Origin: Seison nebaliae
Taxonomy: Eukaryota
Reading direction: 5' to 3'
DNA: 64,000 nucleotides
NCBI GenBank assembly: GCA_023231475.1
Contig: JALJEE010002733.1
Location: 124,001-188,000, forward strand
A program made the position numbers and the translations under genes. Positions 6,001-64,000 of the stretch are shown piece after piece. Position 1 is the stretch's first letter. Each line of letters begins with the position of its first letter. The notes under the pieces were generated by a model. That model was not told the origin of the DNA and made no database searches. It saw nothing but the letters and a program-made list of their open reading frames with translations.

Positions 6001-9000
6001 GATTTCCCGATGAACCAGGTTATTGTTTCGATGAAAAAATGATGAATCAGCCACCACCAACACCTGTCGTTGATGATGGTTGTGAACGATTAACAAGAGT
6101 TGGTATGTGTCGTGAAGGACTTTCTTATTCACGAACGAGATTTCCAAATCGTTTCGGACATCGTACACAAGAAGAAGCAGATCGTGAAGCACAAATGCTC
6201 CAATCAATCGTCAATTCACAATGTCATCGATATGCGAAATTGTTTCTTTGTCTTCATTATGCACCAACATGTACGAAACAACAAGAGACTTGGGTGAAAC
6301 CATGTCGAACATTATGTCAAGAATTCCATGAATCTTGTGCATCAGCAATGTCACGTATTGACATGCCACGTACATTTCCTTGTGATCAATATCCGATTGC
6401 TGGTGGTAATGAATCATGTATCAGTTATCTAGGTAAAAAAGTTGAACCTCAAGTTACACCAGCTCCCCCTAACACACCACCAACACGAGTCCGACCCGAT
6501 AAAGTTCCAAGTGACGCAGCAATTTGGAGATTAACTGGTTGTAAAAGTACAATAAATTTCAAACCGGTCAACGTTCCTGTTACAAGTGACCAAACTGATC
6601 TCTCTTTCATATTCCGACCAGATTCTCGTGATGGAATTATATTTTATTCAGGAAATCATAATAAGCTCATGAGATTTGATTTAGAAGTTAGAATTATTAT
6701 TTAAAACATTTTTCCTCTTTTCTTAAAAATGAGAGTCAATCTTTTAAAGAATTCATCATCACGGGTTAATTAACAAGAATTTTCCCATAGAATTATTTCG
6801 TTAGAGAACTCATCTCTCAATGAGAAGTAAAAATAACTTTTTTTTTATTATTTTTCCCAAAATAGTTGTCCATATTATGGAATCTTTCTCGGAATTCTTT
6901 TTATTGTAGTTCGTTCATTATTATAGAGAAGAATGAGGATAATGACGGGAAACTTTATTCTCCTCACGTTCTATTACACTATTAATATATTCATGTTTAA
7001 TGAATGAATAGTTAATTAGTAAATCATGTAAAATTGAGAGATTGTTTGGAATGATGTGTGATAGTTGAACCGCATAATTCAATTAGTAATTGAATCATGA
7101 TTAGTAGTGAAGACCGATTGGACAGCTGTCTAACAGAATTCTTCGAAATATTTTCGCACTTCTCATCTACTTGTTTCAATTCGATCGGACATCAAACGAA
7201 TACGATGTCAATCTGTCACAAATTAAGTGAAGTTGTCAAGGAATAGAAAATACTCTTTTTCGAATTATCAACAATAAAAAATGGAGAATTTCATTATATT
7301 TATTATTCTCTTCTTTTTTCAGAACGGTTTACCAGTGTTGACGGTTTCATCGAACAATGTCGAAAAGAAATTGCGACCCACACCTGACCAAGCACGACAA
7401 TTACAAAATGATAGGAATTGGCGTAAATATTACACGGTACGTATCGCCAATACGAAAGATCGTATTCATCTGATATACGACGATATGAATATTGGAAAGG
7501 AACCATTGAAGATTGATAATGAAGATGATCGAGTAGAAACAGTGGCAGCAGTTAATGGAATAAAATTTGGTAGTGATGAAAATAATGAAGAATTCACTAA
7601 AATGGAATTACATGATGTGATGTATACAGATGGAAATAATAATTATCGAATGGATGATTATGCCAGTAGTTCATCACCTGCTGTCAAATATTCTGGTTAT
7701 GTCGAATATAAACCGACCAGTGTCGAAGAAATGGATCGAGACAGTCCCCAACCAATTAAATTTCGATCAGATAATAGTTATGTGAAAGTTGATCCTCCAT
7801 CCGCCAGATATGGTGGAAGAAATAATGACAAATCCTTAAAATTTCAATTTAAAACTGATATGAATAATGATCGAGCCTCATCAACTCTCTTGTCTACATC
7901 GAGAACTAACGATAAAGATCGAGTATTTGCTATCGTCTTCGATGAATATGCCAGATTGGTAGCCTTACAAAAATATGAGGAAGATGGACAATCAAAAACG
8001 ACAAAGAATATTATCAATCGAAGACCATTAAATGATGGTCAATGGCATCAACTTCAGTTAGATATGGTAGAGGACGATTTACATATTCAGGTTGATAATG
8101 AGAAAGCAGAATTGAAGATGAAAGAGAATGTTCCATTATTCTCAGACGATAGTTCATTGATTATCGGTTATGATGATGAAAGTATCACTAGTTCAATGGC
8201 TACTCTACCAAAGAGAAGTTTCCTTGGTTGTGTCGATGAGATTACGGTGGGGAATAGCGATCCCATCTCGTATTGTATAATGCCGGGACATCGAACAATT
8301 AAACTGAATGACGTTCATGGAGGTTGTTATGATGTGAATGAAAGGAAGATTATCGAACCGCCACCAATGGTAACAGCACCACCACCAAAATTTCCAAATG
8401 TGATAATTAAAGGAAAAGAGATAACATTAGATCCGATAATGGAAGGTGGAGAAGTTTATTTCACTGGTGATGGCTTCATCAACTTCCAACAAGAAATTGC
8501 CAAATCTCCTAATTGGGAAAAAGTGGAATTAAATTTCCGTACCGATCAACCAAACATGCCATTATTCTATACGGGTCGACCTGGTGCTTCTATTTGTCTC
8601 TCATTAAAGAATGGTCTAGTCTATTCAACTTCTCATCAATATCCGAATTCAGATCGTGCCGAAGAATCGATAGGACGACATGCGAATGCATCTGATGATC
8701 GTTGGCACAAATTAGAAATAGAAAGAAACGAACAAAATTATCGAATTATTTTAGATGGAAAAGAGACAAATAAATTTCGTTCAACATTACCACTTATCAC
8801 CAATATTGATCAACGTGGCGATGTATCGACGAGAATAGGTGTCGCTTGTGGAACTGTAGGATACAAAGGTAAAATGAAAGATCTCTATTATGTTTGTTGT
8901 GATGATTCATCACCTAAAACAGATATTCTTCAACGATTAGACAATTCCGCTGGTGATGTTAATGCTCATGGAACAATTGTGTATATGCCACAATCACCAC

Positions 9001-12000
9001 GACCTATCGATTATAATGTTGAACATACTCAACCTATCCAATTCACAGACAAGAGTGCTTTATTGGCAGTTAATCTACCAAAACAATCGAAGGGGAATGA
9101 TTATAAATTGAGCATGATGTTTAAAACAAGAGAACGACAAGGCTTACTCTTTTATTGGGGCGCTGGCGGCTCTACCAATTTCTGGGCGATGGAACTTTAC
9201 AATGGAATTCCATATGCTATTGTGGAAATGGGTGAAGGAATTCGACGAGTAAAAGGCTCAAATTCAGCTGTCTCGGATAGTCGTTGGCACTATGTAGAAT
9301 TTGAAAGGAAAGGAAAAGATTTTTGGATTCGAGTTGATAATCGAGTTGCAAAATTTTTAGTTCCAGCCAATGTCGAAATGAGAGATCCACATCTACATAT
9401 CGGAAATTCGAAATCAGCACGAAAACTTCCTTGGCAATTGTGGACATCGAATGGATTTGCTGGTTGTCTTAAGAACGTCTGGCTTCATACGCACTACAGC
9501 GATCTGGCACGAATTGATGCTTTGAGAAAGGCACAATCAATTACAGTCGGTTGTACTGAACCTACATTGCAATGTTCGAGAACGTTGGAATGTAAACATA
9601 ATGGTGTATGTAGAGATGGATGGCCGAACTCTTATTGTGAATGTATGGAAACACAACACACTGGTGATACTTGTGAGAAGATGGCGAATATTTTATCATT
9701 GAACGGAAGTACAGGATGGAAAGAACAGTGTAAGGACATCAAACGATTATCTCATGAAGATGTCTGGCTACAATTCAAGACATTAGCCCCAAGTGGTGTT
9801 TTATTTGCATTGAAATCCGAACCCAAATCTCCAGGAATGGCAGTTGGTTTAGAGAATGGTAAGATTGCTGTTACATATGCAGAAAATAATGGAATAGAAG
9901 AGAAGAGAATAGTCTCCAAATATGGCACTTATAATGACAACAATTGGCATCGATTACATTTGTTAAGATTGGGAACGGTTTTGCAAGTGGTTGTTGATGG
10001 AAATAAAGTAATTGTTGATCATTTACATGATCATCCCACATATGTCGATTATTCCATTATTAATGTTGGTTATGCTGGAGAACTGAATAAGAATAACGGT
10101 CAATCGCCCGATTATTTGAATCGAGGTCTCATCGGTTATATTCAAAATGTTTATTTCAATGGAGAAGAATTGATGGGATCGAGAAAACGATTTAAGACAC
10201 CTGGTTGTTGGACTGACATCACGGCATATGAAGGTTTGCAAGAACCATTACTCCATAACGTCATCACATTTACTACTCAACAAAGTAACGCTCGATGGTT
10301 GGACCGAACGTCACCATATGTGGCCGATAAACATAAAACGGTGTTACATTCATTCCATTTTAGAACTGATAATCCAAATGGTGTAATCTTATATCGACCG
10401 GGTGTTGAACCTGATACGCATATGGGAATGGAATTAGTTCAAGGGAAATTTCACGTTCTCTTAAAACCACCAGGCATCTCCAATACCATCACTTTACATT
10501 CAACGGGCGAAAATTTAGCCGACGGCAAATGGCACAGTGTACATTTGGTTCATGAATTTGCTTCATCCGTCTCCGAACAACCACATTCATCTAAATTAAT
10601 ATTAACTGTTGATGGACGTCCAACATCACATCAAATACCATCGCCACATAAACCATTCAGATATTCGGAAACGGTTTATATTGGAGCCATTCCACCCAAC
10701 GTGCAAAAACCGACAGAAATGTCTGCACCAAATGGATTCCAAGGTTGTTTCGCTTCATTCATGGTTAACGGATTGCCAATCAATTTATTCTTCGATTCAT
10801 ATAAATTGAGTGCTGATGTCATCAATGGTTGTATTGATGATCGAAGTAAATTATGTGGAGCTGACAAATGTTATCATGGAGGAACATGTATCCAATATTC
10901 CGACAATTTTAAATGTGAATGTCAAATGACTTCTTATACCGGCTTTAAATGTGCCGATTATTCAACCGCTTATTATTTCGGTAAATCATTATCACCCGGT
11001 CTCATCAATTATGCCATTCAACCAACATGTCAAAATTCGAATAATGACAAAATGGCTTTCGGTGTCGTCACAAAAGATCCCGATGCTATTTTGGCAAGAG
11101 TTGAAGGAAGAATTCCGGAACATATCGAAATCAAAATGAGAAATGGAAGACCATCTGTCATGTGGAATTTCGGTCAATCAACTGGAACGTTAACATCCAA
11201 CGAAATATTAAATGATGGTGTTTATCACATTTTACGATTATGGCGAATAGACGATCATTTACGATTCCAAGTTGATGATGGACAATTCTATGAGAAGAAA
11301 ATGCGTTAGAATTTAATCATAATTCAAATTGTTTTTATTCATTCTTTACAGTGACCGATCCAAATGTATTCGATTGTGTAACAAGAATATTGGTAGGTGG
11401 TAAATATGATGAGAATCATAAGATAGTTGATGATCTCAACGGAATAGTTTCTGGTCTTTATTACAATGGACATTACGTGTTAGACAAAGCGTTAGCCGGA
11501 GATCCTAATGTCGAATTGATTGGCGATGTAGTACCTGTGGCTCCAGGTCCGAATGGCTTCGTTCTTGAAGAACCTCCAAAACCTGCAATAAATGAAACAC
11601 ATGTTAAAGTGACAGCACCACCAGTGTCGTTCGCAAGAAAAGATCCAGTTCCACCCAAAGTTATCGATTATCCGAGACGAGCGAAAGGAGCAGCTGTTCT
11701 TGGTGGAATACTCGCTGGTATTATTGGAACATTATTAGGATTAATCGCACTCGTATTAGCCGCTGCACGTTATGCAGAAAAACCTTGTTTTGGTGCAGCA
11801 GCAAAAGGATATGCTGTGGCAGGAAAACCTGTAGAAACGGTTGGTGTACAAGCAGAAACAGAATTACGTGTTGCTAGATCGGCAGATGCTGCTGGTGCTG
11901 GTGCAGGTGCGAGAGCAGATGTATCAGTCAAAGTTGATGGAGCTGCACTTGCTAAAGGAAATGCCAGATCTGATATTACAATAATTAATAATTATGCCAT

Positions 12001-13627
12001 GACCAATCAAGGTATGAAACATTTGGGAACATTGGCTCTTAATGGAGGCGAAGTTACTAGTGTTGTTCCACCACCAGGTTTTTATTACATTTCTTCAAAT
12101 ATCTTAATAAATCTCTAATTATTTTCAAGCTATAATGAGTGGAACAACTTTTGATCGTACAGCTCATTCGAGTACAGAACAACGTCAAACTGCGGTTAAT
12201 ATTCCAATAGTGACACATCCTCCAACCGTGGATCGTCGCCAAGGAACATATTATTTATCTCAAATGGATCAACGACATCAAGGACAAGGTCTCTCACAAC
12301 AAAAACAGAAGGCTGTTTATGAATATCAAGCAGCAGACGCATCTTGTGTTGCTTTAAGTGCAGACGGTCATCAAGCGGCAGTTGGTTTACATAATGGTTC
12401 TCCTCAAATATGGAATACAGTTGATGGTATGTTCATCCAAGCATTAGATGCTGTATCAATAAACCAACAACGTGATGGAAGTGTTCCACCTTCAAAGAAT
12501 TCCTTATGTTTACGTTTGGCTTGTAACGATTCGACATTGGTTGGATTAGCAAACGATGAGACATTCGGTGGTACAGTACCATCTTCCACTAATGCCTCAC
12601 CAAATAATCATTCTCTATTGGTTAATTTTCAAATATTTCTTATAATTCTTTAACACAACTTCTTTCTGAATAGATGTGGGATTTTAGACATGCTCGACAA
12701 ATTCATTTAAGTCATCAAATAAAATGTTGTACATTCTGTTTAGTATCCGACACGAATAGTGTGGTAATGGCAGGTAATCAGAAATTTGGTCGCGGTATAA
12801 GTATCGGTATATTCGATTTGAAACATTCAGCATTGACGAAAGAAATTAAAAGTGATCCAAATATTTCATTCGGTGCATCACCGTCATGGGTCCAATTAAC
12901 ACCGGATGATAGTCGAGCTATTGTCGGTTGTTATAATCCAGCCACTCAACAGACCAATTTTGTCTTATTCAATTTATTAGCGACAGGTGAAATACAATCA
13001 TGTACCTCATTATTATTAGACACAGTTGCACCATCACCTGCCGCTTGTGGTTGTACTGGATCGATTGATGCATCGGGACCAGCTGGTACTACAACTTTAG
13101 TTACAACCAATAACGAAGTATTGACGGGAACTAGAAACGGTGGCATTGTTGTATGGTCGGCAATTAATGGAGAAATATTGAATACTTACCATCAATTACA
13201 TAATGCAGCAATTCTAGCTATGGCCTTATCTTCCAATGAAGCATATTTCGTAACTGCGTCAGCTGATGCTACAGCTAAAGTTATACAAACTCAAAATAAT
13301 AAAGAAGTCTCAACACTACTAGGCCATCAAGGAGAAGTTTATTGATTATTTTTCCAATCAAATTAAATATAATTATCTGTTGTTTAGGTAACTTGTGCCA
13401 GTTTTTCAGCAAATAGTGATATGGTTATCACCGGATCTAGAGATTCAACAATTCGAATGTGGAAAACTTATGACGGTCAACCAGTATCAGCTATAACTGT
13501 TGTTGGAACACCGGTTGAGTGTCGTATGGCACCTCATAATAAAACTATCGTGGCCATTAGTGAAAAAGAAGACCGAACACGTCAATTGCTCATGTTGAGA
13601 GTTGTTGGTGATAATCCAAACCAATAA
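15..13627 (+). CDS. Giant neurexin/CASPR-like type I membrane protein: many LamG/ConA-like domains, EGF-like domains, three Frizzled cysteine-rich domains, one TM helix, cytoplasmic WD40 repeats; 5' end probably outside the window; >=4257 aa
   Basis: Exons 15-6686, 7323-11304, 11352-12077, 12130-12620, 12674-13336, 13388-13627 total 12774 nt and stay in frame. Introns are 636, 47, 52, 53 and 51 nt, all GTT..AG. Intron 1 splicing restores a LamG strand (MRFDLE|NGLPVLTV). LamG motifs include FRTSSPDSLLLY, LNDNRWHSLVI, FKTRERQGLLFY, VSDSRWHYV and GFAGCLKNV. EGF motifs are CKHNGVCRDGWPNSYCEC and CYHGGTCIQYSDNFKCEC. The FZ domains have 10-Cys patterns (5205-5570, 5691-6026, 6081-6419). TM is AAVLGGILAGIIGTLLGLIALVLAAA (~11690-11770). 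WD40 motifs are VTASADATAKV, LLGHQGE|VTC and ITGSRDSTIRMW. The frame is open upstream of position 15 and there is no signal peptide. Confidence 0.88.
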
Positions 13628-15200: not shown

Positions 15201-18200
15201 TTATGTTTCAGGATGATCTTCTTCGTTTTCTTCGATAGTATTATTAGAAATTTCGGTGGGAGAAGTTTGTTCACTGGATGTTCTCAACATATTCGTTAAG
15301 AGATATTGGAGATTGATATAATTTGGATTTTGCTCTGTTAAATGATTAGTCGAATTCGAGGGAACTTGGTCAGATGGACGCGCAGTTATCGTTTCTGAAT
15401 ATCGAGATAAACGGTCAGTGTTTCTACGATAATGATGATTGGAGTTAGGTGTTAATGAGACATCATCTAAAGTATTGTTTAAATGTTGTAATGATTGTAA
15501 AGAAGATTTGGATTGACAAGTATACTGATCGTATCGTTGAGGATGAATGATATGTTGAAGAGATTGACGATTACGGGAGAAAGTGTCGTCGATCATATGC
15601 AAAAACATTTGGTCGACGCGATGGAGAATCATAGAACATAAATCGTTAATATTATTCGATGGGACGGATATATTCTCATTATTCTCTTCTTGACCATTTC
15701 GATATTGTACTGAAGAATTTTCAGATCTTATTGTATTATTATGTGGATTTATTCTGGTATTATCCACTTCAGCTAATCGATGTGTTGGCATTTGTTGTGG
15801 TTGATGTTGCTGTGATCGTTGTAGTAATTGAATCGATTCGTTTTGTGTCTGTGGTTGAGAAGGCAACCCAAATGGTTGTAGAGAAATAAGATTGTCTCTT
15901 AATCGAATATGTTCTTGTTCCGATTGTTGGGACAATGAATTGCGAAGTGATTGTGGTTGTTGTTGCGCAAATTGTGGAGATTGGTGTTGCATTGGCTCTC
16001 GATGTGAATGGAGAATTGGTAATTGTTGAGGATGATGAACATTTTGGGTTTGTGATGGATGTTGCTGAAATTGCGGAAGTGAGACATTTGGTGATTGGGA
16101 TAATGAGATTGAAGTTATTGGAGAATTGGTATTATTTGGTGAATAATTATTGTGCATAATTGGTAACACAGAAGATGAGACATTACTTACATTTGTTAGT
16201 TGGAAATTTGGTCCAATTGGTGGTGATATATTCGGTTGTTGAAAATGTTCTTGGCGTAAGTGTGGTTGTTCTTGAACTTGTGGTTGTCTACGTATCGGTT
16301 GGATGATTTGTTCAGATAATGAATGTTGTCTAATTCTTTGATCTTCATGAATTATATCATTAGGTCTTGATATTTGCGATTGAGAATAACGTCGTTGACG
16401 TCGATGATCTGAATTAAGTTCATCTTGTATGATGTTTTGTCCATTTGGTTGATTTTGTTGTTGATGTTGTTGTTGATGTTGTTGATGTTGAAGTTGCTGT
16501 TGCTGTTGTTGTTGTGGTTCTGAATTTATTTCATGGTTCGATTCTATTTGAACAGTCTTTTTTGGATTCCTATGATAGAACGGTAAGGTGTCCAATTGTG
16601 GTATTCCAGTTGGACTGTTAATCATATTGAATGGAATTGAAACGGTACCGGAAACTCTCATTAATCCACCATCTTTCTTCTGTTTGGCATTTATTGGAAT
16701 ATTTACCCATTTGTCCTCATACACATAATATTTCCCAATCACTAAATCAATACTACCTCCAATGATGGTAATAGAAGTGACGGTAGGTTTATAAGTTTTC
16801 CTTCTGCCATGTACCTCACACAAAGGACTTGCCAAATGAAATAAAGTTCTATCGAAATTATCCGATTGCATCAACAACTCTTCGACCTCTTCATTCTTTA
16901 GATAATCTTTAATTTTCTCTTTATTGACTTTATTCTCATCCCCTTTCTCCTCCTCCAAAAGCATTGGTAGATAACCCAAAATCAAACTACATTCTCGAAA
17001 CGATGCTTTCAATGTATCGATTTCGTACCATTTTTGTTCGTGTATGTCGAAACATTCACAAATGTAAATTGGTCGTTTGTCATTACCAATTCCCCCACAC
17101 ACAATTATTCGATCATCGACATAACAAGCGGAATGCCAACTTCTCACATGATTCATCGGAGTTTGTTCTATCCAATTGGAGACGGTCTGTGTATAAGGAC
17201 AAATGTCTAATCTCAATACATTGTTCGTATATCCGGTTGCTGAAGGAATTGAAGGATCGACTGCCACAAATCCACCCATAACATAAATGGAAATCACTGA
17301 ACTGAATTCATTATCAACCGAATCGATATATTTATCAATCAATTGATATTTCTTATCTTTCTTATTCAATAATTTCCCGAATCTTCTCGTCGTGATTTTG
17401 TTGATATTATTTACATTCTTCCTTACCACCACACAACCAGCATGACCATGTCTAGCTTCAGGCAAATGGATTAATTGTTGAATGACTGTCTGCGAATTGA
17501 AATGTTTCTTCTTTAATTTATATTCTTTCACTATTCGTAATTTCTTCTGAAACAAATCCTTATCATTTATCATATCATTTCCATCACCATCACCATCACC
17601 ATTACCTTCATTTTCACTTTCAATCTCTTCATCATTTTCATCATCCGATACGAGACCGTTATTCATTCTCTTCAGATTCTTTTTCGTATTTCTCTCACAT
17701 TCCTCAAATTTCAATAATTGCTCTGTAATTATATCGATATCGATCATTTTTTTATTGATCACCGTTGTCCATTCATTGATTCTCATATCGAACATCTCAA
17801 CACAATTCAATAATCCTTCACTATTCCGTCCACCCACCACAATTATCATTCCGAATGTTTCCGATTCAATCAAATCATTCAACGAGAAATTTGACCGATT
17901 CTTATCATGTTTATAAATCTGATTATTTGTCGTATTCTGTTCGAAGAATGGAATGATACAAGCATAAAAATACGCTCTCGCATATTTCATTGATGGTAAT
18001 TGTTTCCATTGATGTCGATGAGAGTCATATCTCCAAACCACATTCGTCGCATATTCCCCCAATTGACACGGTGCCGTACAACCACCAAGGAAATAATAAA
18101 ATCCTCGAAATTCCAAAACTTTCATATTGGTCAAACCTTTAATTTCTTTCAGATGATTTTTTGAAGAACTGATATTTGGAATACGTAAATAGGAATTATT

Positions 18201-19776
18201 CGATTCGATCAATTCATAATTGAGGAATTTCTCTCCTTCTTCCTTCTCATCTTCACTCAACATCTTCCCATTATTAATCTTCAAATTGAGACAAGTCGTT
18301 CGTACTTTCTTCTCGACAATTCTCTCACTTTTTTCCTCCTTCACATATTGTAATCCACCACAAACAAATATACAATTATTCTCAATAAATCGACTACGTG
18401 AAGAGAATAAGAACGAATATTGATATCTCTTCGACGATTTCTTCCCAATAGAGACATTCTGTAATTTCTTTCTCGTTCTCATAATAATTCCAGTTCGATT
18501 ATTTTTTATCGATAATATACATGATGGTAACAACATTAATGGTTGTTCATAATTCTCATTGAAATAATTTAAAAGATTCAAATAGAATAATGATAGAAAT
18601 CGATTACTCTCAAACCAAATCTTCATTGATGGAATCAATAAGATTATTCGATTAAAATCATTCACATTAATCATCGGCCATCGAATTCGTAAAAGAACCA
18701 GATCGAATAATTCTCGATTCAATTCGTCATGCAATGGCAATTGAGAAGCGAATTCGAACATTTCATTTATATCTTTTATATTCACTAATGTTTTGTCTGA
18801 TGCTGTTCTCTTTTCTTCCATTCCATCCGAATCAGTCGAATCGGAATCACTTTCTGTATCAGAATCCAATTCGCAAATATCTGAAGAGATCGTTCCATAT
18901 AAACTGGCGATTTTAGAAGAAACGATTCGTTTTCCATTCTTCATCGTGATTAATTGTAAAGCAAAATAGAGGACATCCAATTCGAATAAATCTTCGTTTT
19001 CTGAATTCTTATTTTCAATGAATAGATTATCGGCCGAAAATATTTGAAGGATATTCTCATATTTTAACAACAAGATCGTTCCATTCGAACAAACTTCATT
19101 TAAATTCTGTAAAATAAAATTGAAAACTTTCCGTCGCAATATCGAACAAAATGGTTCGACGATGTCGTACTGAAGATAAAATGGATAAAAATTCTCGTTT
19201 TTTGAGAAATCGTAAAGTGATGCCGTCTGCAAATAATGGATCCAATTATTCCCGTTAATTCCATTGAGAAAATTCATTTCGCTAAATTCTCGAATCGTAT
19301 CACATTGGAGTAGATGAGATGCATCCAACAATTTCGCCACATCTTCATATGCTGAAAATATGAGTTTTTTATATTTTTAAAATTTTATTAATTTATAGAA
19401 TGAATGTTAACTCTTCAGTTGCATATCATCGGTTAGATGATGATTATCATTCTGATAAATAATTGTTAAAGCAAATTTCAACGTCTTCATATCAATTGTC
19501 TTCAATCTGATCGATCTATTCTTCGCATCTTTCATTGAACTAGTGAATAATGCGTAGAAGAATGGACTGACAGCCGCCAACACCGACCGATGTGCCGAGA
19601 TTTTCTCACCTAAAATTACAATTAATTTAATTAATTTGAATGATTAACGAACCTTCACTACTGATTAGATCGATGTCACATAATGATTTTTTTTTGAATA
19701 ATAAATCAAGATTCCGAATAAAGTCGTGAGATGTCGATTCTCTCATTTGTGTCTTGTTATTAATACGAAAAAACAT
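15201..19776 (-). CDS. BTB-BACK-Kelch (KLHL-family) Cullin3 adaptor with large insertions and a long Gln/His-rich C-terminal tail, ~1490 aa
   Basis: Exons 19776-19653, 19609-19412, 19351-15201 total 4473 nt, in frame; introns 43 and 60 nt, both GTT. BTB motifs are LCDIDLISSEG|EKISAHRSVLAAVSPFFYALFTSSM and DVAKLLDASHLLQ. BACK motif is LLLRIRWPMI. Kelch motifs are YFLGG..VWRYDSHRHQWKQLPSMKYAR, VVGG..VEMFDMRINEW and IIVCGG..CECFDIHEQKW. The start codon (19776 or 19746) is uncertain. Confidence 0.88.
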
Positions 19777-28434: not shown

Positions 28435-30601
28435 ATGGAAATCGATGAAAAATCTGTACATTGTAGAATGGTTGTGGAAATCGATGGTATGAGCGATGGC
28501 AATGTTTAGTTGTTTTTTACATTAATCCCCATTCCTTCTTTCATTCGAGTTTAGCAAGAGGAGAATAATGATGACAAGTGGCCATATGAAGAGAAAGTGA
28601 AGGGAAATGATCATGTAAAAATTTATGAAATGATTCTCTATGGGATCGGTGGACTACCTTATGAGTTATGTGCTAATGCAATCGGATTTTATATTACAGC
28701 ATTCCTCTTGGAAGTAGCTCAAGTTTAGTTAAAATTTCTTAACATTCTTCTACATATTCAATGAATTAGATTCGTGCAGTTTATGCATCAGCTGTAGTTT
28801 TTGCGGCTAAGGTATTTGACGCCATAACTGATCCTTTAACTGGAATGTGCGTTAGTGCTACCAATTCGAAATATGGTCGAACGAAACCTTGGTTGGTATT
28901 TAAATGATGAATGAATAAAATAAAAATTTTGTGGTTTTTTTCAGGGTACTCGGTTCGACGATACCTGCCATCTTCTGCTATTTGGGTCTTTGGTATGTTC
29001 CCGACGGTTGGTCTCAACACAGCAAAGTCATGTACTATATTTTTTTCAATTGTGCGTTTGGTTTATTCTTATCAGTTTGTAAATATTTGTTTGTCTCATG
29101 AGAATTGTGGTAATTTATTAATTTTCTAGTTATTACATGTACCTTACACTACAATGGTGATGTACGTTACTAATAATAGTACTTTACGAGACCGATTGAC
29201 AGCATTCAGTTTTATTAAATTTCCTTCTTCTTGATAAATTCATTCACGTGTAATAGGAATGATCTTCGAAGCATTTGGTATACTTGCTTCTGTTGTTACA
29301 CAAGGTCTCATCATCCGAATGAGTGGTGGGTCGTTGGGAGAATGCGATACAGATGGAAATACCACAACAAACTCATTAGAAAAGACAGTTCTTTTTTGAA
29401 ATTATATTCTTCCATTTCTTCTTATTCTACATAGAAAAAAGGATATATTTATGCTGCTATTTTTATGGGAACGATGTATTTCATCTGTGTGATTTGTATC
29501 ACTTTAGGTGTCAAAGAACGAATCCGTTAGACATCTAATTCCAATCATTACAATCATTTCAAACTCTTCTTAGGAACGGCTAAACATCACATCTCTCAAA
29601 TTGGACGATCAGTTAAACTGGTTTTATCACATCGACCTTACCAAATATTAGTAGGAGCTTATGTCATGTCATGTTTGTCCATTCAAACCGTTCAAGGATG
29701 TTTAATTCTTTATTGTAAATACGTTCTCCACGCGGAGAAACATTTCGATTTCATTTGTATCACATTAATCGTTATACATTCTCCCCTTCCACTATCTAAA
29801 TTCTATTCAATATTTTCAGGCTTCTGCCGTCGTTTCACAACCGTTATGGTATTATTTGATGGGTAGAATTGGTAAGAAGCCGTTATGGATGATGGGTTGT
29901 GTCGTTAGTACATTTCCCCAATTTATATTTTCTTCAAATCGAAACATATTTTTAAATTATTTGAAAATTTTAAATTTCCACTCAAATTTTTATTAGTTTT
30001 TGTTTCCATCATACGAAAATTTTCGAGAAAATACATCGAGATGAATTGAAACGATTTAAGAAAAGTAGAAATGATTGTATTTGTATATTATTTGTAGGTG
30101 TTAGGACCATGTGCGATTGTTCTCTTTTATCTGGAGAATATATCGACAGCCTATGTCGTCTTCATAATAGCTGGAATGACCATTGGCATCAATTTTCTGG
30201 TTCCATGGAGTATGTTACCGGATGTGCTTGATAATTTCGTTTTCAAATACGAAGAAAGGCATGATCCAATATTCTACTCATTTTTCGTTTTTATTACAAA
30301 ATTCTCAGCTGGTATCGCATTAGCTGTCTCACAATTGGTCTTAGAGTTTGATTTGAAATTAATTTTGGGAAACAGTAATAATTTCTTTCATAGATATGTA
30401 GGGAAATATGAAGCTGGCCGTTGTGAACAGCCGCCAACCGTTGGGAAAACATTAAGGTACATTGTTGTACCGGGTCCATTTATATTTAATTTAATTTGTA
30501 TCATCTTCCTCTGGAGATACCCATTAACTTCCAGTTATATGAAGAAGGTAAATAATAAAGTCAGAGATATCCCACAGTTACCTGTCATTCTCTCTTCTTA
30601 A
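28435..30601 (+). CDS. MFSD2: MFSD2A/B-like major facilitator (GPH family) lysophospholipid transporter, ~508 aa, 11 exons
   Basis: Exons 28435-28503, 28555-28722, 28770-28891, 28945-29074, 29130-29208, 29257-29387, 29435-29525, 29574-29770, 29820-29903, 30098-30345, 30394-30601 total 1527 nt, in frame; all 10 donors are GTT. Motifs: LYGIGGLPY, FLLEVAQ, KVFDAITDPL, KYGRTKPW, HVPYT, PWSMLPDV, PIFYSFFVFITKFSAG. Confidence 0.9.
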
Positions 30602-31269
30602 TCGATTTATCCATCCATTCTCCCCAAATATGTCATGCAATTTATAGAAATCATGAAAATACCTCAATAAAAGATTACATTTACAACACTTTTACTTGAA
30701 AGAGAAAATGGGTCGGAAATAGCCGATAATTATTTGATCAAAACTTTCCAACATTCAAACCATCCAAACTCAATCATCAAGTCTATTTTTGAAAGGCAAC
30801 TATTTTTTATTATTTATTCTTAATAAACATCGATAAAATCAACTCAATTTTTCTATTTGTGTAATGTTCTCAACGTGATTTAAAGAAAAACAGAATCATC
30901 CTAATCTTTTAAAAACCATCTAAACCAAATTGCATTAAACTATTCCTAATTCAATTCCTGATTCTCCTGATATTCTCAATTCAATATCATCAATTCGGAT
31001 ATTTAAATTTGTCATAAACGTTAGATTCTAACAACATTTACATAGTAACTCCAATTTAATTGTTTTGAAGCGATTTGATGGGTACAATTTATTCACACAT
31101 AAAATAAAACACAAGAGAGATACGAAAAATGGGAAAAACGAGAGTTTGAACTGATACAGGTGGAAAGAACAGATAAATCATATCGATAGAACGTGAGGTG
31201 GTTTTATATATACATTTCGTGGGAAAACAATTAAAGCGATACTTAATATCTCGTTCAACAAACATTATC

Positions 31270-40283: not shown

Positions 40284-40284
<1 letters not shown>

Positions 40285-43426: not shown

Positions 43427-47704
<4,278 letters not shown>

Positions 47705-49710: not shown

Positions 49711-51301
49711 ATGAGCGTAACGGGACTTAGCACGACGGATAACCGAAATGGTTGCCTTATAATTAATTTTATATTAATTCCATTTCATTTTCTTAACCTG
49801 TCACGATTCCATTGAAAAGATACGATAAAAAATCATATTTCATTTTTTTCACCAGATTCGATGGAAGTCGGTAAATCGAAATGCAACCGCCATTTCCAAT
49901 TCCTTATGGAATTCATTACAGTATTGATTGGTTAATTTGTTTTATTTATAAAAAAGAATTAATGAGTTAGCTCTACCTTAGCTATGAGTATCTTACTCGT
50001 TCTCATGTTGGCCTTAAATCCGTCTAAGCGAGGTTTCTTTTGTAATGATCTCACAATACGCTACCCTTATCAAAGTGACACAGTCACAGTTGCTATTCTT
50101 GTTGCAGCAATTCTGTGTTTAGCATTTCTAACAGTTTCTTTTTTTTCCACTTTCTTCTTCACTTGTTGAATTCTCACAGTTTCTCATCTTGAATCTAACT
50201 CATTCGAATAGTAGACATGAAATGAAGAGTCGCGTGATCCAATGTGTTCTCAACTTATCCATCGATTGCCTTATATTTGGATTTGGAATGTTTCTCACAA
50301 TGGCTGTAGCTGAAATTGGTAAAGTTACTGTAGGTCGTTTACGTCCCCATTTTATCGATGTATGCAAACCAGATGTCGTATGTCCAAAGTTATTTCAATT
50401 TTTTTCAAAATTTACTTTCCTTCATTCAAATTTATCTCGTTAAAAAAAAACGAATCGTTGTAAAATTTACAACGAACTAATAACACAATTTAATAAAATT
50501 TTTGTTTATACTCAATTTTCAGTTCAGACCCGTATAAATATATTGAAGATTACAAATGTCAAGGAACAGATGCGAAAGCGATAAGAAATGGAAGACTATC
50601 ATTTCCATCTGGTCATTCGGCATCCGTCTATTATGGAATGGTGACATTAATAGTTAATTTCTTAAAATAAATTTCATTTTATAAGAATTTTCCAGATTTA
50701 TTTAGAATTCCGTTGGAATCTTTCATTGAGATTTCTACGTCTTTTCTCCCAAGCCGCATTATTTGCTTTTGCCTTTTATGTTGGATGTTCTCGTATAGCT
50801 GATCATCGACATCATCCAACTGATGTGATTGCCGGAGCCGCACTTGGATCAATCGTAGCGATTTATATAGTTGGAATTTTTTCAAAATTTCTTTTATAGT
50901 TTGAAATTAATTCACAGAGTATTTGTCTTCATTATCGTCATTATTATCCTGATCCGAGATATGTTTGGAAAGTTCCTGGCAGACAATTTTTCGATTTTGA
51001 ATTAGAGAAAGACATATATGTGACACGAGATGATTTACTCCATCGAAAACCAGCGCCATATACTGCGAGAACTTATCATCGACCAAATGATAGTGTGAGG
51101 AACGTTGAACTTACTGATATGAATCGAATGTCAGGTGAGACTGTTGGTACAACCAATTTCCACAAAAATAACAACAATACTGAAATCAAATTTAGCGAAG
51201 TGAATTTCAATGCGAATTTGCCAAGTAACCAAAATTATTTACAACCACAACTCAAGAACATTCACATCGAATCACCTCCGAATTACATAAATTCAAACTA
51301 A
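49711..51301 (+). CDS. PLPP: Lipid phosphate phosphatase (PAP2 / PLPP / wunen-like), ~387 aa, 7 exons
   Basis: Exons 49711-49750, 49856-49930, 49982-50133, 50180-50388, 50523-50652, 50696-50869, 50918-51301 total 1164 nt, in frame. PSKRGFFCND..IRYPY is present, and all three catalytic motifs are intact: KVTVGRLRPHF, SFPSGHS, SRIADHRHHPTDVIAG. The first exon is the least certain. Confidence 0.92.
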
Positions 51302-51553: not shown

Positions 51554-52025
51554 TTAAACTCTCGATTTATCCAACGCGGTATTCAATCCTTGATTACGAG
51601 GCATACCACAGATACCCAAATGCTGAAAATTCGTACGATTTATAGAAAAAAAATAAAATGGTTTAATTTAAATTGAAATAAAACTTCAGTAAATTTACTC
51701 GATTTCGAATGATAAATATTTGGCATCGTATGAACATTCGGTTTGTTTCGACCATAATCTGAATTCGTTGTTCTATATAACACGTGTTCTTTATTAACTT
51801 TATAATTCGTTAAATCTAAAAATAGTTTTATAAAAGTTTTCTTTATAAAATTATTCGCTAACGAGGATATTCGAATCGATCAGGTAAGCAGCCGCTTTTA
51901 TAGTATTCTGATGTTTTGGCCTTCTCTGGTATGTTAACTCCGTCCAAACATTTAATTCTTTCGAAATATTCTTTATTCTTTTCGTACTCCTCACATTGTG
52001 GCTCTTTGGTCCTATCTTCCATCAT
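51554..52025 (-). CDS. PIERCE1: Piercer of microtubule wall (PIERCE1/2, C9orf116-like) ciliary microtubule inner protein, 120 aa; absent from the ORF track
   Basis: Exons 52025-51863, 51815-51685, 51622-51554 total 363 nt, in frame; donors GTTAGC and GTTTTA. Translation includes LPDRFEYP..HVLYRTTNSDYGRNKPNVHTMPNIYHSKSSKFTEHLGICGMPRNQGLNTALDKSRV*, which matches my recollection of the family motifs YRT(T/S)N.xYG, HTMP and GM.RN..LNT..DKS. Confidence 0.88.
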
Positions 52026-53759: not shown

Positions 53760-54346
53760 ATGGATCCGAGTAAATACGAATTACCAAGATGTGGTTCGGA
53801 TATCGATTATACAAAGGTTAGATTGACTAATTATAGAACATTGAAGTAAATCAAAACTTACAGATCGGATCAATTCGACAAAGACGATTGAATTGTTATA
53901 TAAACAGTTACAACTTAACAACGTTGTCATTACTTAATCGATTTGAATTGGAGAGTCAGAAGCGTTTAAGGTTAAATGAACGACAATTAGATGGGATCGA
54001 ACGTCAATTAATCCTTTTAAATGATGCACTTGATTCCGTCTTAACGAAAGAACAATTGGCTCAGATTGGAACTTCTTCACTCGAAAAATCCTCAGAAGAT
54101 AAATCACAAAATTCAGAAACGGTGGAAAAGGAAGAAATTAAGCCTGAAGAACAAGTTGAAGAAGTTGCAGATGAAAACGAAGAAGTTGAAGAACCAATTG
54201 AAGAGATGTCATCGAACGTTAAATTTGAACAATACTTGAAATTAGTTAAGATCGGCGTTCCACCAAACGCACTTTTCAACAAGATGCGACTAGAAGGATT
54301 TACTGAAGAGGAAATAGTTGAGTTTACTGATATTTGTGGAAAATAA
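53760..54346 (+). CDS. WASHC3: WASH complex subunit 3 (CCDC53), 179 aa
   Basis: Exons 53760-53816 and 53864-54346, with a 47-nt GTT..CAG intron. Motifs: LP.CGSDIDYTK|IGSIRQRR, LLNRF..coiled coil..LILLNDALDSV, acidic linker, YLKLVKIGVP.NAL.NKMRLEG. Confidence 0.88.
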
Positions 54347-54408: not shown

Positions 54409-55212
54409 TTACCCCAAAATGTTTTTGAATTTTTTACCGAATTCCACCTTTTCTGCCGGAATCATATTTACACCAATTTGAAGACATGCAATTTCTTCAT
54501 CGAATTCATTTCGTGCCATTGCTGTCACATTGTAATGACCCTACGATATTAAAATGGTAATGAAAGAAAAGGAGTATGATGAGAATAACACTCGCTAGCC
54601 AACTAAGAATCTTACCAAATTTAGGTATTTCGGTTGAGAATTCTTGGGTGTCAATGACACCCGTAGAACTGCCAGTTAATGGACAAGAACAATCAATTCC
54701 ATATTCTTTCAAATTATCTGGGCAATTGTTTGGATAAAGTTTGAAAATTCGTTGCATAAAATCACAAACATCAGGATAGACACTGATATGAATTTAATGA
54801 TATTAGCAAAAATAAAATCATTAAAAAAGAAATCAACCAAGAACCCACTGGTTTTCCATCAATATGGAAACAACCAATTGGCACACTAAGACCAGCTATT
54901 GTCCGTACGACGTTAACGTGCAAACTAATTACGCCTTCGTTTAGACAAAGTAGAGAAAATATTAAAATTATAAAATTGTACCACTTAAAGGTCGATCATT
55001 TTGAACGACAATTCTCGCTTTCACATTTCCGGGTTGAACTACTGGATCTGGTGAAATTTCTATTTGTTGGAATTTGATCGGATTGTCATTTTTTCCTATG
55101 AGAAATGTTAAAGAACTCTAATATATTTGATTAACTAACCACAATTGTGCCAGTTGAAAGCTTGGTTTAGATGAAGTACAAAGAAGTTCAGAAAAATAAT
55201 TTTACACAACAT
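54409..55212 (-). CDS. GM2A: GM2 ganglioside activator-like secreted ML-domain lipid-binding protein, 202 aa
   Basis: Exons 55212-55140, 55095-54982, 54934-54838, 54782-54590, 54540-54409 total 609 nt, in frame. Signal peptide followed by FNWHNCG, ISPDPVVQPG, GSCVYPDVC, CPDNLKEYGIDCSCP, SWLASGHY, EIACL. Confidence 0.87.
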
Positions 55213-57732: not shown

Positions 57733-58381
57733 TTTAAAGTCAAAACAAATTTTTCTTTTTGCGCTTAGTCGAAAATGATAATATTGTATAAATGACTGAA
57801 TTTTTATAGTTGTTTAATTCTCGAGCATCTATATACACATGTGGGACATTGAGTTAATGGAATGGAATAAGCGCAAAATTATTTTAAAAATTTATTATGA
57901 TATTTCAAATTATGTTGTCATGGATACTGGAACGAAATCGATATACCTTCTGCAAACTTCTCCCTACAACATTTCTTCCATTTCAATTAATGGCCTTTCA
58001 CATCATTGTTTGGGCCAATAAATTCTCCAATATCATTAAATCTTTACAAACTTATCAAATAGTTTATTGTTTTTAATAATATAATTTGCATATTCCTCAT
58101 TAATGAATTCCCAATGAATCATGTAATATCGTCCCATAACAAATATGAGTGGAACATGGAACAAAAGGAATATTCATTATAATTTTTTTTACTTATCAAT
58201 CAATTCTCAAAAAATTAATTAGTCAGATTATTCATTCAACTCGATAGAGCTAATTTCTTAAAAAGTAGGAACAACTAAAAATCATTTGATGATATTAGGA
58301 AGACAAAAATGAAAAGATCGGTGAAAAAAATTAGTTTCTCTCATTTGACAAAATTGAACAAAGTAACGAACTTAACTGAAA

Positions 58382-59198
58382 ATGCATCAATTTGACGATT
58401 TTCAATACGATAAGGACGATGAGGAAGATAAGGATATTGGATATATAGTTATAGTTCAATCGTTTGAAATACTTTCTAGGAAAACGTCGATTCCCCATGA
58501 TCGAATTGATGCGCTCAAACGTATAGCAGTTGAGACATTTTTAGGTACTCCGACTGCACGTTCTTGTACTGCTTCCAATATCGATATCGTCATTAACGTT
58601 ATAGTCAATGATGATGATAGTGAAGAGGTACAATTACAAGCTATTATCTGTTTATCTGAAATTGCTGCAGCTCATCGTGATTTGAATGCTTTAGTTTCAT
58701 TTTAATTCTATCATTATCATTATCATCTTTCATCAATTAAATTAGTTACGACAGAAAAAAGTTGTGAAGTTAGTTTGGGATCTCATCATCTCCACTGTTA
58801 GCGAGAGATACATGGCATGGGGTTGCTATTGTCTTTCGAATTTAGCGGCGGGAGGCATTGAACCATTAGAACATGTGAAGAGCATCGTCTCGTCTGAAGT
58901 GTCCAGTTGGGAACGATTGACCACATTAGGTATTTGGCAACGTATATGGATTCAAAATTATGCGGCCGTTCTCGCCGATTTACTCAACATTACATTAACC
59001 ATACCTTCGACATCCGTCGCTCCTTTAACAATAAGTTTTCGTCAGCGATCACCATCGATAGAACAGGAATATCGTCATAGAAAACGATATAAGTTGAGAG
59101 GGATAGATGTGGATAAGAATGCAATTATCGCCAAGAGTTATGTGAAGAAAATGGACGTTAAGTTAAATAAACGTACTCAATTACAATTGATGAATTAA
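58382..59198 (+). CDS. Armadillo-like helical domain protein, ARMH2 (C6orf229)-like, ~254 aa
   Basis: Exons 58382-58693 and 58746-59198, with a 52-nt GTT..TAG intron in frame. The helical pattern DRIDALKRIA..FLG, WGCYCLSNL and WQRIWIQNYAAVL resembles my recollection of ARMH2 (W.CY.LS; W..W.ENFA.VL). The start is uncertain. Confidence 0.65.
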
Positions 59199-59323: not shown

Positions 59324-59754
59324 ATGAATAATCCAATTTTGGATAGTGAGAAATTTCGAGTCGAGACGATACAAGATGAATTAATTGTTCGTTCTATTTT
59401 AAAATGATTCGGTTCAACTCATCTGTTAATATTTAGCGTGAGAAGCGAACGAGATATTATGAGCAAGATAAGGAATTTCGAGGTATATCCATCATTGATT
59501 CAGATATGAGTGAATTGCGACTTAAAAGAATAATTTCAATTCTCTGGAATATTATTGCTCCGAATGGATGTTTAGAAGAAGCGACACAAAGTCTGAAAAT
59601 TGAATTAGATAAGGAATTCGGACAAACTTGGAATTGTGTTTGTGGAACTTCAGTCACTTACAACATCCGTCACTTATCACCTGACAATTACGCGTTATTC
59701 AATTTTGCTGATCAATATTTAGTTTTCATTTTCCGAAGAGTGGAAACATTTTAA
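59324..59754 (+). CDS. Divergent LC8-type dynein light chain (DYNLL/DNAL4 family) with an N-terminal extension, 126 aa
   Basis: Exons 59324-59386 and 59437-59754, with a 50-nt GTT..TAG intron. IIDSDMSE..., ATQSLKIELDKEFGQTWNCVCG and a terminal LVFIFR strand follow the LC8 pattern (IK.xDM, A..IK.xFDK.xG..WHCIVG). Confidence 0.82.
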
Positions 59755-59889: not shown

Positions 59890-62800
59890 TTATTTGCCCC
59901 AAAACGTATTCAATTCGTACTTGAATTTATTAGTCTCAACATCAGGCGTTGCTTCCAATTTGGGAAGTTCATCATCAAATAAATTTGCTTTCTTCTTCGG
60001 TTTCAACATTACGATATGGAACGGTGATGTTTCTCCTTCCGTTTTCGATGTTTGTTTCTCCATCCACGTATCTTGATCATTTCCATTCTTCTCCAACTCT
60101 TCGCTAAACGTATGAAATGGAATGAAATTATAATTGGTATCGGTGGATGGCGCTTTCTCTTCATTCTCCAATTGACTCACAATATTACTCTTCTCAATAT
60201 CCGATGAACTAGTTGATAAAAGTAGAGAATTCGTATTATATAATTCGTTCAATTTATCTTTATCAGTAATATCTGAATCGTCTTTTTTTTCCATTTCATT
60301 CTTCAACAAATTCAATTGTTCGGTAAGTGAATCGAAAAAGATATCTTTGAAAGTTCCATGAGAATCGACGTTGTTTATCGGATTAAATGCCAAATCGACT
60401 TTACTTAAATCAACTTCATCACATTTTTCTTTAGTTTCATTTAGTAATTTCAAATTGTCATCAACTTTATCAGGTGAAGATAAACTAAAGTTATGATCAC
60501 GATGATAATTGTAATCGGAGATTTTATAAGAAGAACAATTGAAATTTTGGTCAATGGGAAATACCGTATCGATTTTTGGTGTCAACTCCACTTCCTTCTC
60601 CGCATTCCTCTCAGACAGAGTATTCTCACTTTCTTCATTTCCAAACAATTTTTCTTTCATTTTATAATCGTAAAAATTTTCGAAATTGGGAGAATCGGCT
60701 GTTAAGAAATCGGCACCATCTGTTTCGTTGTCGATCGGATTCAATTGTTCAATTGATTCACTCTCATCCATTAGAGACGAAAGAGAATCCAATTTACAAA
60801 TGTCGTTGGTGATTGATTTGTGTTCTTCAGAAAAAACATTTTCATTCTTCTTTTTTATTCCCTTTTCAAAATCGAGACTTTTCTCTTGGAAATTTTTGTA
60901 ATAATTCTCTAATTCTTCAGTTCGAACAGAATTATTATTATTCGTTCTCTTCTCATCCGAACCTAAATATGTTGAGATACGACCAAATATCGATTGCGGT
61001 TCAGGTCGATTTGTTGGCATACGAATATGAGGCGGTCGTTTCATTGTTCTTTTTATTATGATTTTATTTGCCGGTAATGGTGGCACGGTGATTGATTGAC
61101 ATTCAGCTGCTACCACATTTGTCGTAGTGCTCGATTTGACATTCCAATCATCATTCTTCAAAATTGGCGTATAAGATTTTGGACTGTCAGTTTTGGATCG
61201 ACAAGTTCCATTATTTCCGTTTATCGCTCGTCCTTGTCGTATACGACGTTGACGAATAGTATTGCGACTATTATCCATTTTCTTTAATTTTTCTCGATTT
61301 CTCCTCAACAGATTTTTCCCGTCATAACAATCAGCGTCACAAGAATTTGCAGATTTCACTGAATTTATCGTCGCTTTCTCCATTTTCTGATAACCATGAA
61401 AACTGACTTGTTTCTTTATAGATGGATTAGATATTCGTCTGATTTGTGGTTCTTCTGCTTTCTCTTTCTTCTGATGGGAATTGATTGAATGTTTCGATGA
61501 GATCGATCCAACAGAACGACTATGTGATCTTCTGATAGTCTTCAAAATATGCGAACGAGTTCGATGAGTTTTTGGAGATGTATTCGATCGTAATTGTTCT
61601 TCTTTTACATAATTTCTTTCGTGATCAATCGAACGTATATTAGTTGAGGGACATTGTGATAAATTTTTACAAAGTCTATTACCTGATTGATAAAGTGGTG
61701 GTGATAAAGCACCGAAAACAGCTGGATTATATTGGACATTGTGTGCATATTCCATTTTGGCATATAACGGATTTATATTATATTTTATTGGATTAACTGA
61801 TGTTGGTAATTTTCCCTGAAAGTTTTCACTTGATTTTCTTGCAGTTGCAATATCATGATTATTTTTCCGATATTGATCCTTCATATAATTCGCACCAGTT
61901 TTATCATGAAAATGTTTCGTGGCACTTGGTGTCGTTTTTGTATAATATTGGGACTTGAATAAATGTCGAGAAGAATGTCGATCATTATTTTTCCCGTTTG
62001 GCTGACTTTCATTTAATAAATGACGATTCGTATGTTGATGCTTCATTTGTTGGGTGTCTGTTATCGATTTCCGACTATGTGTTCGCGATTTCGGTCTATA
62101 TTTTCTTTTCTGATGTTTCGAATTACCATATTCTAATTTATCTACTTTGTTGCCATGTGACTGTTCCGAATTACGTATGGTTACATCTGTTATGGATTTA
62201 GTATATATGACCGATGATGTATTATCTGATTCTCCTCCTTTTAATTCATCGGTCGGATTGACTAAAGTTCCACTAGTCGCTAATAATTGATTGGGAATGT
62301 ATGTGAGAGAGAGTGTTGTACTGGAAGTTTTCGTGAGACTGGGATGACGTCGTTTTGAAGAATGACTTCGTCTTATCGTCGTACGATGTTTACTGGAAGT
62401 TTTGTTTTGTGAATGTGATCCTTTAAGATGAGCGGAAATTTTCGATTTTACCGAATGACGACATCTCAGTGATCTACTATCATTCGATTTAGTCCGAACT
62501 TTCTCATCATCCATTCCAAAACGACCACCTTGAATTCTGCTCGAATTGACACGTGATTTATGTTTATAAATCTTCGAAGAAGAATGACGTCTACTGTGAT
62601 GGATAGATGCTTGAGAAGACGATTTGCCAATGGCCGATTTCTTCATCATTTGTATTTCGTTGTTCAATTCATTAATTTGTCTGATTAACGAACCTTGATC
62701 CATATATTCCAAATTCGTATTAACAGCACGTGGTACACTAAAATCTTTAGGACGTAATCGTTCGACTGTTTTGAATTCTAATCGATTCTTCTCCAATAAA

Positions 62801-64000
62801 ATCTTTAACATATTCTCTAAATTTTCCGTTCGCTTCTTTATAATTTCCGCTTCTGTTAAATCTATTATGTTAGCGATTGGTTTTTCCGATGGAGCATTCT
62901 TTATGTTCAGTTCATCTTCAAATGAAAAACCAAAATTCATTCGAGTGATATTGAGTTCGTTTAGATCCGAAGATTTACATGGAGACTTTAAAGTTGAATT
63001 GATAATTTGCTTCGATTTCGTTTTCTCCAAAAACGGTGGTTTAGATTTCGGACAAACCTTATCATCAACTGTCGAATATGTGAACGTTTTATGTTCCTTC
63101 TTTTGTCGACGATGTTCTTGTTCGTATGTGGATGGCGGAAAATATTTGAAATTATCTTTTCCTGTAGATTGTCTAAATTCTTTAGATTTGAATGTTTGGA
63201 ACTCTTTCTTCGCATCATACAACGATTGACGTACATTCTCATTCTCTTTAAATTGTGATTTCATACTTGGAGGAATAGGAACATTCGTATCAGGAGCGAT
63301 AGGTGTCTGTGAACCTTTCTTCTTTATTGGTTCTACAAATTTCTTACAATAAAGTTCTGTTTCTTCATCTTTCCCAACACTCTCACTCTAAATAAAATTG
63401 TCATTATAATGTAATTCTTGTTAAGTAAAATGAAACCGTCGTACATGGTAATGAAACATGTGGTGGTTTATATTCTATAAAAGATTTTATAGATTATAAA
63501 TATTTGCTTTTCAAGAAAATTAGATAAGAAATATTAACCACATAAAGGCAAAGTGACATTAAGTTCCCTCAATCGTGCTCGTACTTGTTTCCGACGTATA
63601 TCCAATTGTTCTTTGTCAATTTTCGATTTAACTTTATTCAGATAATTTTGAGATTGTTTCAATTTGAGAAATTTTTCTTTGCCGATCAATGTCTCTGGTA
63701 TAACATCTTCACGATCGACCGATGTTTTATCGCCCTCTTTTTTCTTCATCATTTTAGCAACACTGTTCAATGTCATCAGATCGTTGAGATATGTGTCGGA
63801 TTTATTGCACGGTTTGGCAATTCCTTTCTCGGAGAGATATCCAATTTGGTTGGTATCATAACGATTATCGACGACACCCTTCTCTAATAAAGTTCTCAGG
63901 TAAAACAAATGTTTACCATTCGATAATTCGACATCTAACAACCGGGGCATGGCTTTCTTTAAATTTGTTGCGGAGCACTTGGGAGATTGAACATCAACAT
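59890..64000 (-). CDS. Large uncharacterised, mostly disordered protein (Ser/Arg/Lys/His-rich middle, acidic C-terminus), 5'-truncated
   Basis: Exons >64000-63539, 63474-63437 and 63387-59890 join in frame through GTT..TAG introns of 64 and 49 nt. The last exon holds a 1124-aa ORF. I recognise no domain. Confidence 0.75.

Follow-up and report, generated by a model that had tools for sequence, protein, structure and literature searches.

Background

The donor consensus at the 5' end of introns is among the most conserved gene signals of animals, and departures from it are already known: Entamoeba has transformed donors together with a changed small nuclear RNA (snRNA), and splicing is transformed in Fritillaria, a tunicate. 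In five Entamoeba species, GUUUGU donors occur together with a complementary U1 snRNA end, ACAAAC, and a diverged U1C protein (Roy and Bowser 2022, 10.1101/2022.06.08.495308). Here, we present an analysis of the introns in a 64,000-nucleotide stretch of DNA (the window; positions 124,001 to 188,000 of contig JALJEE010002733.1) in which nearly all predicted donors begin with GTT. The DNA is from Seison nebaliae, an epizoic animal of the rotifer-acanthocephalan clade whose genome measures 46 Mb at 32% GC (PMC8351084).

The donors of Entamoeba resemble those of Seison in carrying U at the third intron position (+3) nearly throughout and in keeping G at +5, and they offer a precedent for the U1 mechanism proposed below. 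Entamoeba, however, is a protist with few introns and a strictly defined donor of six bases, whereas the Seison genes studied here have four introns per spliced gene and only +3 is fixed. Furthermore, the U1 change has been shown in Entamoeba, whereas for Seison it is a proposal. Fritillaria borealis (Soo et al. 2025, 10.1101/2025.08.15.670264) is, like Seison, an animal with altered splice signals, genome-wide in the case of Fritillaria, but 95% of its introns depart from GT-AG, which Seison retains. Fritillaria has also lost N6-methyladenosine (m6A) on its U6 snRNA and retains its m6A writer genes, whereas in Seison the gene METTL16 is scored missing.

A species-level donor shift alongside loss of splicing factors is further described for the A/U switch at +4 in Saccharomycotina, involving METTL16 and SNRNP27K (Parker et al. 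2023, PMC10581693). In these yeasts and in C. elegans mett-10 (PMC11347140) it is +4 that is affected and +3 only little, whereas Seison has neither a preference for U at +4 nor a stronger exon side. The standard U2-type donor, AG/GURAGU (PMC11732430), shares its GT-AG ends, +5 G and register with Seison, which has U in place of the +3 purine; most Seison donors fall outside both classes described for this type, those with a strong exon AG and those with GURAG (PMC11732430).

A thymine at the third intron position

Our catalogue holds 56 introns in 14 genes, 54 of them beginning with GTT and two with GTA, with no GTG and no GTC (95% interval for GTT 88-99.6%). The bias is the same on both strands (35/36 on the forward, 19/20 on the reverse strand). 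T follows GT at 40 of 85 sites (47%) inside introns, 35% of sites in exons and 40% across the whole window; against the highest of these backgrounds, 0.47, the GTT excess has a binomial p of 9e-16, and even against 60% it has p = 3e-10. Only two of the 56 donors have A at +3 against a background of 33% (p = 8e-8), so that T is selected and the preference switched rather than lost or relaxed. Among unused in-frame GT sites lying between -30 and +20 of the true donors, 24 of 27 are not GTT.

The original prediction had counted 53 GTT donors among 55 introns, across 14 spliced genes and both strands, and our recount leads to the same picture, including its two GTA exceptions (45079 on the forward, 54981 on the reverse strand) and its absence of GTG. 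All ten donors that it quoted lie where it had placed them with the letters it gave, the reading frames are open through all junctions of the 14 genes, and within the window T at +3 (54/56) does exceed the intronic background after GT (47%). We consider it very probable that the +3 T bias is real and genome-wide.

Calling of introns

Introns were called by three routes. The first was a gene finder that combined coding statistics with GT-AG ends and a prior on length but had no +3 term. GTT begins 30 of its 40 calls and 19 of the 22 that measure at most 64 nt; the 40 include a spurious gene on the antisense strand and several long introns that were called wrongly. Before the count of 56, this antisense gene (six introns) was removed, as were long or alternative calls that conflicted with homology or manual reading. 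The second route was a spliced aligner, again without a +3 term, which allowed donors to be GT or, at a penalty, GC. When three database proteins matching the window (P0241, P0391 and P0121) were spliced-aligned, 21 of 21 junctions were GTT; the blindness to +3 is here that of the aligner and not necessarily that of the gene models behind those proteins. Profiles of foreign proteins (23 MFSD2, 74 tubby, 40 UGP2 and 30 glutamate-receptor sequences, picked by length from hit lists) gave 18 calls, 17 with GTT and one with GTC. The latter, an in-frame and stop-free segment of 87 nt called with the UGP2 profile, was dropped, as the deposited protein keeps it as coding. When the 17 profile-fixed donors were knocked out one at a time, the score fell by 7.9 to 137.

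The third route consisted of junctions read by eye, which were added to the others to reach the 56 introns. Reading by eye and frame closure define 33 of the 56 junctions, for which GT-AG was assumed and which are not blind to the hypothesis. At the 23 junctions that a deposited model or a foreign profile fixes with no +3 term, the donor is GTT every time (p = 3e-8), and each of them closes with GT-AG in the spliced alignments. A further scan that lacked a +3 term had GTT at 36 of 49 top segments, 35 of which were already catalogued; its model had been trained on the catalogue and the result was not counted. The source of the DNA agrees with deposited proteins of Seison nebaliae, with 100% identity of one exon of the UDP-glucose pyrophosphorylase gene to SNEBB_004381 and of one tubby exon to SNEBB_004388, and Pfam gives names to most of the 14 spliced genes. 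Three sequencing runs over 38500-58400 showed no splice joints, the two with coverage behaving as DNA, which speaks neither for nor against the junctions.

Other signals of the introns

The original prediction had positions +4 to +6 varying freely, which is wrong for +5: G is found there in 20 of 56 donors, about eight times its share of 4.5% in the interior of the introns (p = 2e-13). The commonest start, GTTAG (10 observed, 0.84 expected), is the canonical GTAAG with +3 alone changed. A at +4 (23/56) and T at +6 (31/56) are not above background. Neither +4 (T in 19/56) nor +5 (T in 14/56) is T-rich, and the sequence just downstream of the donors, +7 to +14, is 58% T. The donors contain 0.15 bits of information at -3 to -1 and 0.76 bits at +4 to +8, and the exon-side AG signal is lost; a G at -1 does not make up for the absence of +5 G (Fisher p = 1.0).

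Two marks of U2-type introns are thus present, the GT...AG ends (at the 23 fixed junctions) and the +5 G, though the latter is weaker than in the textbook consensus. The usual +3 purine (2/56) and exon-end AG (-1 G in 15/56, p = 0.1) are not. The introns are best classed as U2-type with a changed third base. Other classes were rejected on the same 56 donors: a shifted register of the form GTT-N-N-G is excluded by +6 G at its background level of 3/56, compared with 20/56 for +5 G; a near-universal GUUUGU of the Entamoeba type, as GTTTG begins four donors; and the class known from METTL16 loss, with U at +4, as T occupies +4 in 19/56 against a background of 47%. Introns of U12 type have an ATATCC-type donor and a CCTTAAC branch point (PMC3033335). 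They too were rejected, with ATCC at +3 to +6 in none of the 56 donors.

ZMAT5 is a minor-spliceosome protein. Its score is missing for Seison and for both acanthocephalans and present for 22 rotifers (PMC12256650), a pattern that hints that the Seison-acanthocephalan branch lost its minor spliceosome.

With a median of 50 nt, and 49 of 56 within 42-65 nt, the introns are short; they are also strongly asymmetric between strands, with 4.5% G, 16% C and 47% T. Acceptors are TAG in 27, CAG in 19, AAG in nine and GAG in one, behind a weak pyrimidine tract. The single GAG belongs to the shortest intron, 49931-49966 on the forward strand (36 nt), the acceptor of which is uncertain, its GTT donor less so. 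A search for the branch point found CTAAC once against 2.4 expected and no clearly informative position upstream of the acceptor. In the introns, TCAT (41 observed, 26 expected) and CTCA (17 observed, 8 expected) occur in excess, unlike CTAAC and TAAC, and this excess could possibly reflect a divergent branch motif.

History of the introns

A search for sister taxa in a metagenome scan returned one locus and that of a prokaryote collection none. The locus is a metagenome contig (L001) with a tubby gene, the product of which clusters at 100/99 support with Brachionus and three unnamed proteins; in this tree, built from 29 of 120 hits, Seison forms a long branch and its placement is unsure. In a viral collection, two contigs labelled as giant viruses (L002 and L003) had distant tubby-domain matches at 33-35% identity.

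Three introns of the rotifer contig lie at the same columns of the tubby profile as Seison introns, and their donors are GTAATT where Seison has GTTTTC (56262), GTAAGT where Seison has GTTCGT (56113) and GTATGA where Seison has GTTAGT (55847). The comparison gives GTA at 3/3 orthologous introns and GTT in Seison, and it shows that positions shared with another rotifer carry GTT in Seison. Together with the depletion of A, this favours the predicted lineage-specific change in what is accepted at +3; the accompanying word "rewired" slightly overstates the case, as Seison keeps +5 G, the usual register and ends of GT-AG type.

An introner (transposon-made) origin was rejected, given no excess of shared words, short junction repeats and the three positions common with the rotifer contig. 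The introns share words of at least 12 nt in six pairs compared with 5.8 in shuffles, and junction repeats measure at most 2 nt in 55 of 56. Since the three introns at shared positions begin with GTA in the other rotifer, the old introns of Seison were likely converted in place, one by one, and not swapped for a new intron family.

Possible mechanisms

The canonical U1 5' end is AUACUUACCUG (PMC3033335). We propose that the major spliceosome of Seison would read +3 through a U1 snRNA with A replacing the U opposite this position: GUUAGU, the best-matching donor, would be the exact complement of AUACUUACCUG after a single U-to-A change at nucleotide 6. With its flanking pairs decayed, such a U1 would check a three-pair GUU core and the occasional +5 G, and the remaining definition of the intron would come from its short length and U-rich, G-poor body. 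After hand-over, the +3 U could wobble with G44 of U6. Tentatively, a variant U1 of this kind would explain the +3 T rule. Averaged over the 56 donors, the duplex energy goes from -2.0 kcal/mol for the canonical end to -3.4 kcal/mol for the one-base variant, a gain that follows from the GTT bias itself and is therefore not independent evidence. A U1 end complementary to GUUAGU would also contain UACUAAC, possibly a cost of the variant or a clue to another reader. That word is the yeast-type branch sequence, which is bound by U2 and SF1.

In its full form, our reading is of a recoded major spliceosome in an intron-rich animal, with a GUU-reading U1, perhaps an unmethylated U6, and thousands of ancestral GTR introns converted to GTT genome-wide, and we give it a probability of roughly 40%. 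Several points weigh against the U1 mechanism. The window is one 64-kb stretch in which all 56 introns are predicted from DNA and protein homology, and an Rfam scan of it gave no match, neither to a U1 nor to any other snRNA gene. The contrast with the rotifer contig amounts to three introns against three (Fisher p = 0.1), too few for a logo. A standard U1 is kept in most lineages described with altered donors, namely yeasts, Giardia, Trichomonas, Thecamonas and Mamiellales (10.1101/2022.06.08.495308), and U1 is invariant across 227 Saccharomycotina genomes despite their +4 switches (PMC10581693). Both GTA donors, 45079 and 54981, appear functional. Finally, G at -1 (15/56), A at -2 and A at +4 lack enrichment, so that even the variant U1 would pair weakly with the donors, as the mean of -3.4 kcal/mol also indicates.

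The third base could instead be read on the U6 side by a spliceosome with standard U1, if loss of METTL16 (no m6A on the ACAGA box) or a change in the box weakened the U6 helix and a wobble between +3 U and G44 rescued it, so that U would become obligatory at +3; such a wobble could form, as +3 lies opposite G44, with which A or G interact just weakly (PMC11732430). Of 25 syndermatan genomes, Seison alone has METTL16 scored "Missing" by BUSCO, the gene being found in the remaining 24 (PMC12256650 supplement), SNRNP40 (missing also in one bdelloid) and SPF45 are scored missing in Seison as well (PMC12256650), enrichment of A at +4 is gone while +5 G is enriched, and Fritillaria combines transformed donors with a U6 without m6A (10.1101/2025.08.15.670264). 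Known losses of METTL16, however, shift +4 to U and favour an exon-side AG (PMC10581693, PMC11347140), whereas in Seison T at +4 (19/56) stays under its 47% background and the exon AG is absent, and +3 is nearly constant in yeasts with and without METTL16 (PMC10581693). Moreover, 356 of 954 BUSCOs (37%) are missing in Seison, 76 of them on its own branch (PMC12256650), and "missing" may stand for divergence; with so many genes lacking, a single missing METTL16 is weak evidence. SNRNP27, PRP8, DIM1, SNU23 and MFAP1 are scored complete (PMC12256650), and so are PRP6, SMU1 and RED (PMC12256650 supplement). We regard a read-out by U6 as unlikely to be the explanation.

A protein could also select U at +3 with all snRNAs standard, be it a diverged U1C or LUC7, a TIA-1-like U-binder or the pocket of PRP8 and DIM1. 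The little pairing information outside +1 to +3 would suit such a reader, as would the U-rich stretch just past the donor; in the human B complex it is PRP8 and DIM1, not RNA, that hold G+1 and U+2 (PMC10943123), and altered donors usually accompany an unchanged U1 (PMC10581693, 10.1101/2022.06.08.495308). However, since +4 and +5 are not T-rich, +3 follows a single-position rule and is not the start of a U-tract, and a protein contact to +3 is absent from the consulted part of the B-complex account (PMC10943123). A protein reader seems to us rather improbable. The U1, U6-side and protein mechanisms are not mutually exclusive. It is very unlikely, on the other hand, that the spliceosome is unchanged and that the pattern goes back to the T-richness of the introns, an effect of this locus or gene set, a wave of new introns from one mobile element or biased annotation. 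The single window, the 33 junctions read by eye, the 30/40 share of GTT in all blind gene-finder calls and the lone GTC call with the UGP2 profile would be in keeping with it, but T after GT reaches just 35-47% in the backgrounds and the excess persists against 60%, GTT begins 19 of the 22 short blind calls, the 14 genes are unrelated and on both strands, and the introns neither share sequence beyond shuffles nor carry long junction repeats, with three of their positions common to the rotifer contig.

Genes in the window

The genes follow in window order, with donors being GTT unless stated. A Laminin G/Frizzled-CRD/EGF/WD40 gene (3..13627, forward), with its 5' end beyond the window, has five introns (donors 6687, 11305, 12078, 12621 and 13337) called by frame closure and the +3-blind gene finder. 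Its spliced frame of more than 4260 codons leads from a Laminin G/Frizzled-CRD/EGF ectodomain to WD40 repeats, with a likely membrane span between them at about 11690-11770, a fusion that is unusual if this is a single gene; it may be two. A BTB-Kelch gene (15201..19746, reverse) has two introns (19652, 19411). The UDP-glucose pyrophosphorylase gene (SNEBB_004381; 22596..24319, reverse) has one intron, 23201-23155, supported by the deposited protein and the 40-protein foreign profile; an insertion of about 29 residues in its product (23530-23616, reverse) is absent from the proteins of other animals and coding in the deposited model. At 21273-22049 (forward) lies a single frame of 259 codons with coding-like statistics and no Pfam match.

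The MFSD2-type transporter gene (28468..30699, forward) has 11 introns (28504, 28723, 28892, 29075, 29209, 29388, 29526, 29771, 29904, 30346 and 30577), all obtained via P0241 and nine also via the 23-protein foreign profile. A 65-codon frame at 31429-31623 (reverse) has coding-like statistics and no Pfam match. The family B DNA polymerase gene (32261..36681, forward), which we take to be polymerase alpha-like, has three introns called by frame closure (35879, 36177, 36367). No convincing reading frame was seen on either strand in 37200-43300, a stretch of about 6 kb upstream of a kainate-type glutamate receptor gene (43427..47704, forward). The latter has eight introns (43683, 44842, 45079, 45246, 45410, 45693, 46304 and 46848), seven with GTT, 45693 and 46304 being fixed by the foreign profile; the GTA donor 45079 was fixed by neither homology nor structure search.

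A PAP2-family lipid phosphate phosphatase gene (49711..51301, forward) has six introns by manual reading (49751, 49931, 50134, 50389, 50653 and 50870), at two of which the blind gene finder preferred GTG 50641 and GTA 50855. A PIERCE1/2-family gene (51554..52025, reverse) has two (51862, 51684), and CCDC53, a WASH subunit (53760..54346, forward), has one, 53817-53863. The GM2-activator-like gene (54409..55212, reverse) has four (55139, 54981, 54837 and 54589), of which three are GTT and 54981 is GTA. A weak alignment to GM2 activator (E 0.015) reaches this donor, and no GTT is close by, the sole near alternative being GTG 54984; on this basis the exception is likely real. The tubby gene (SNEBB_004388; 55664..57732, reverse) has nine introns (57718, 57557, 57374, 57161, 56427, 56262, 56113, 55981 and 55847), all via the deposited protein and five also via the 74-protein foreign profile. 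A gene without Pfam match (58382..59198, forward) has the intron 58694-58754, a dynein light chain type 1 gene (59324..59754, forward) the intron 59387-59436 by manual reading, and a large gene without Pfam match (59890..63998, reverse), with its 5' end beyond the window, two introns (63538, 63436).

Significance

Among nematodes, GTT donors occur as a minority class. Single examples are given for C. elegans (PMC11347140), and our literature search, which did not extend to subscription papers such as the Hagemann et al. 2023 annotation paper, found no GTT rule reported for Seison, for rotifers or as a near-universal rule in an animal. No donor logo for Seison or rotifers was found either, and splicing is mentioned once, in an unrelated context, in the consulted part of the Seison genome paper (PMC8351084). 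A practical consequence is that gene prediction tuned to other animals will misplace Seison donors.

Published transformed donors mostly belong to lineages that first lost most of their introns, and which came first, altered machinery or intron loss, is raised as an open question by Roy and Bowser (10.1101/2022.06.08.495308). An intron-rich animal that flipped one position in nearly all introns, at old positions, would make this question of order testable with public rotifer and acanthocephalan genomes, and the mechanism itself is sharply testable with public data. The case of Seison would reveal which part of the spliceosome sets the preference at +3 and, if the reading of a recoded spliceosome is true, it would represent the first compensatory snRNA change in an animal and a donor transformation uncoupled from massive intron loss.

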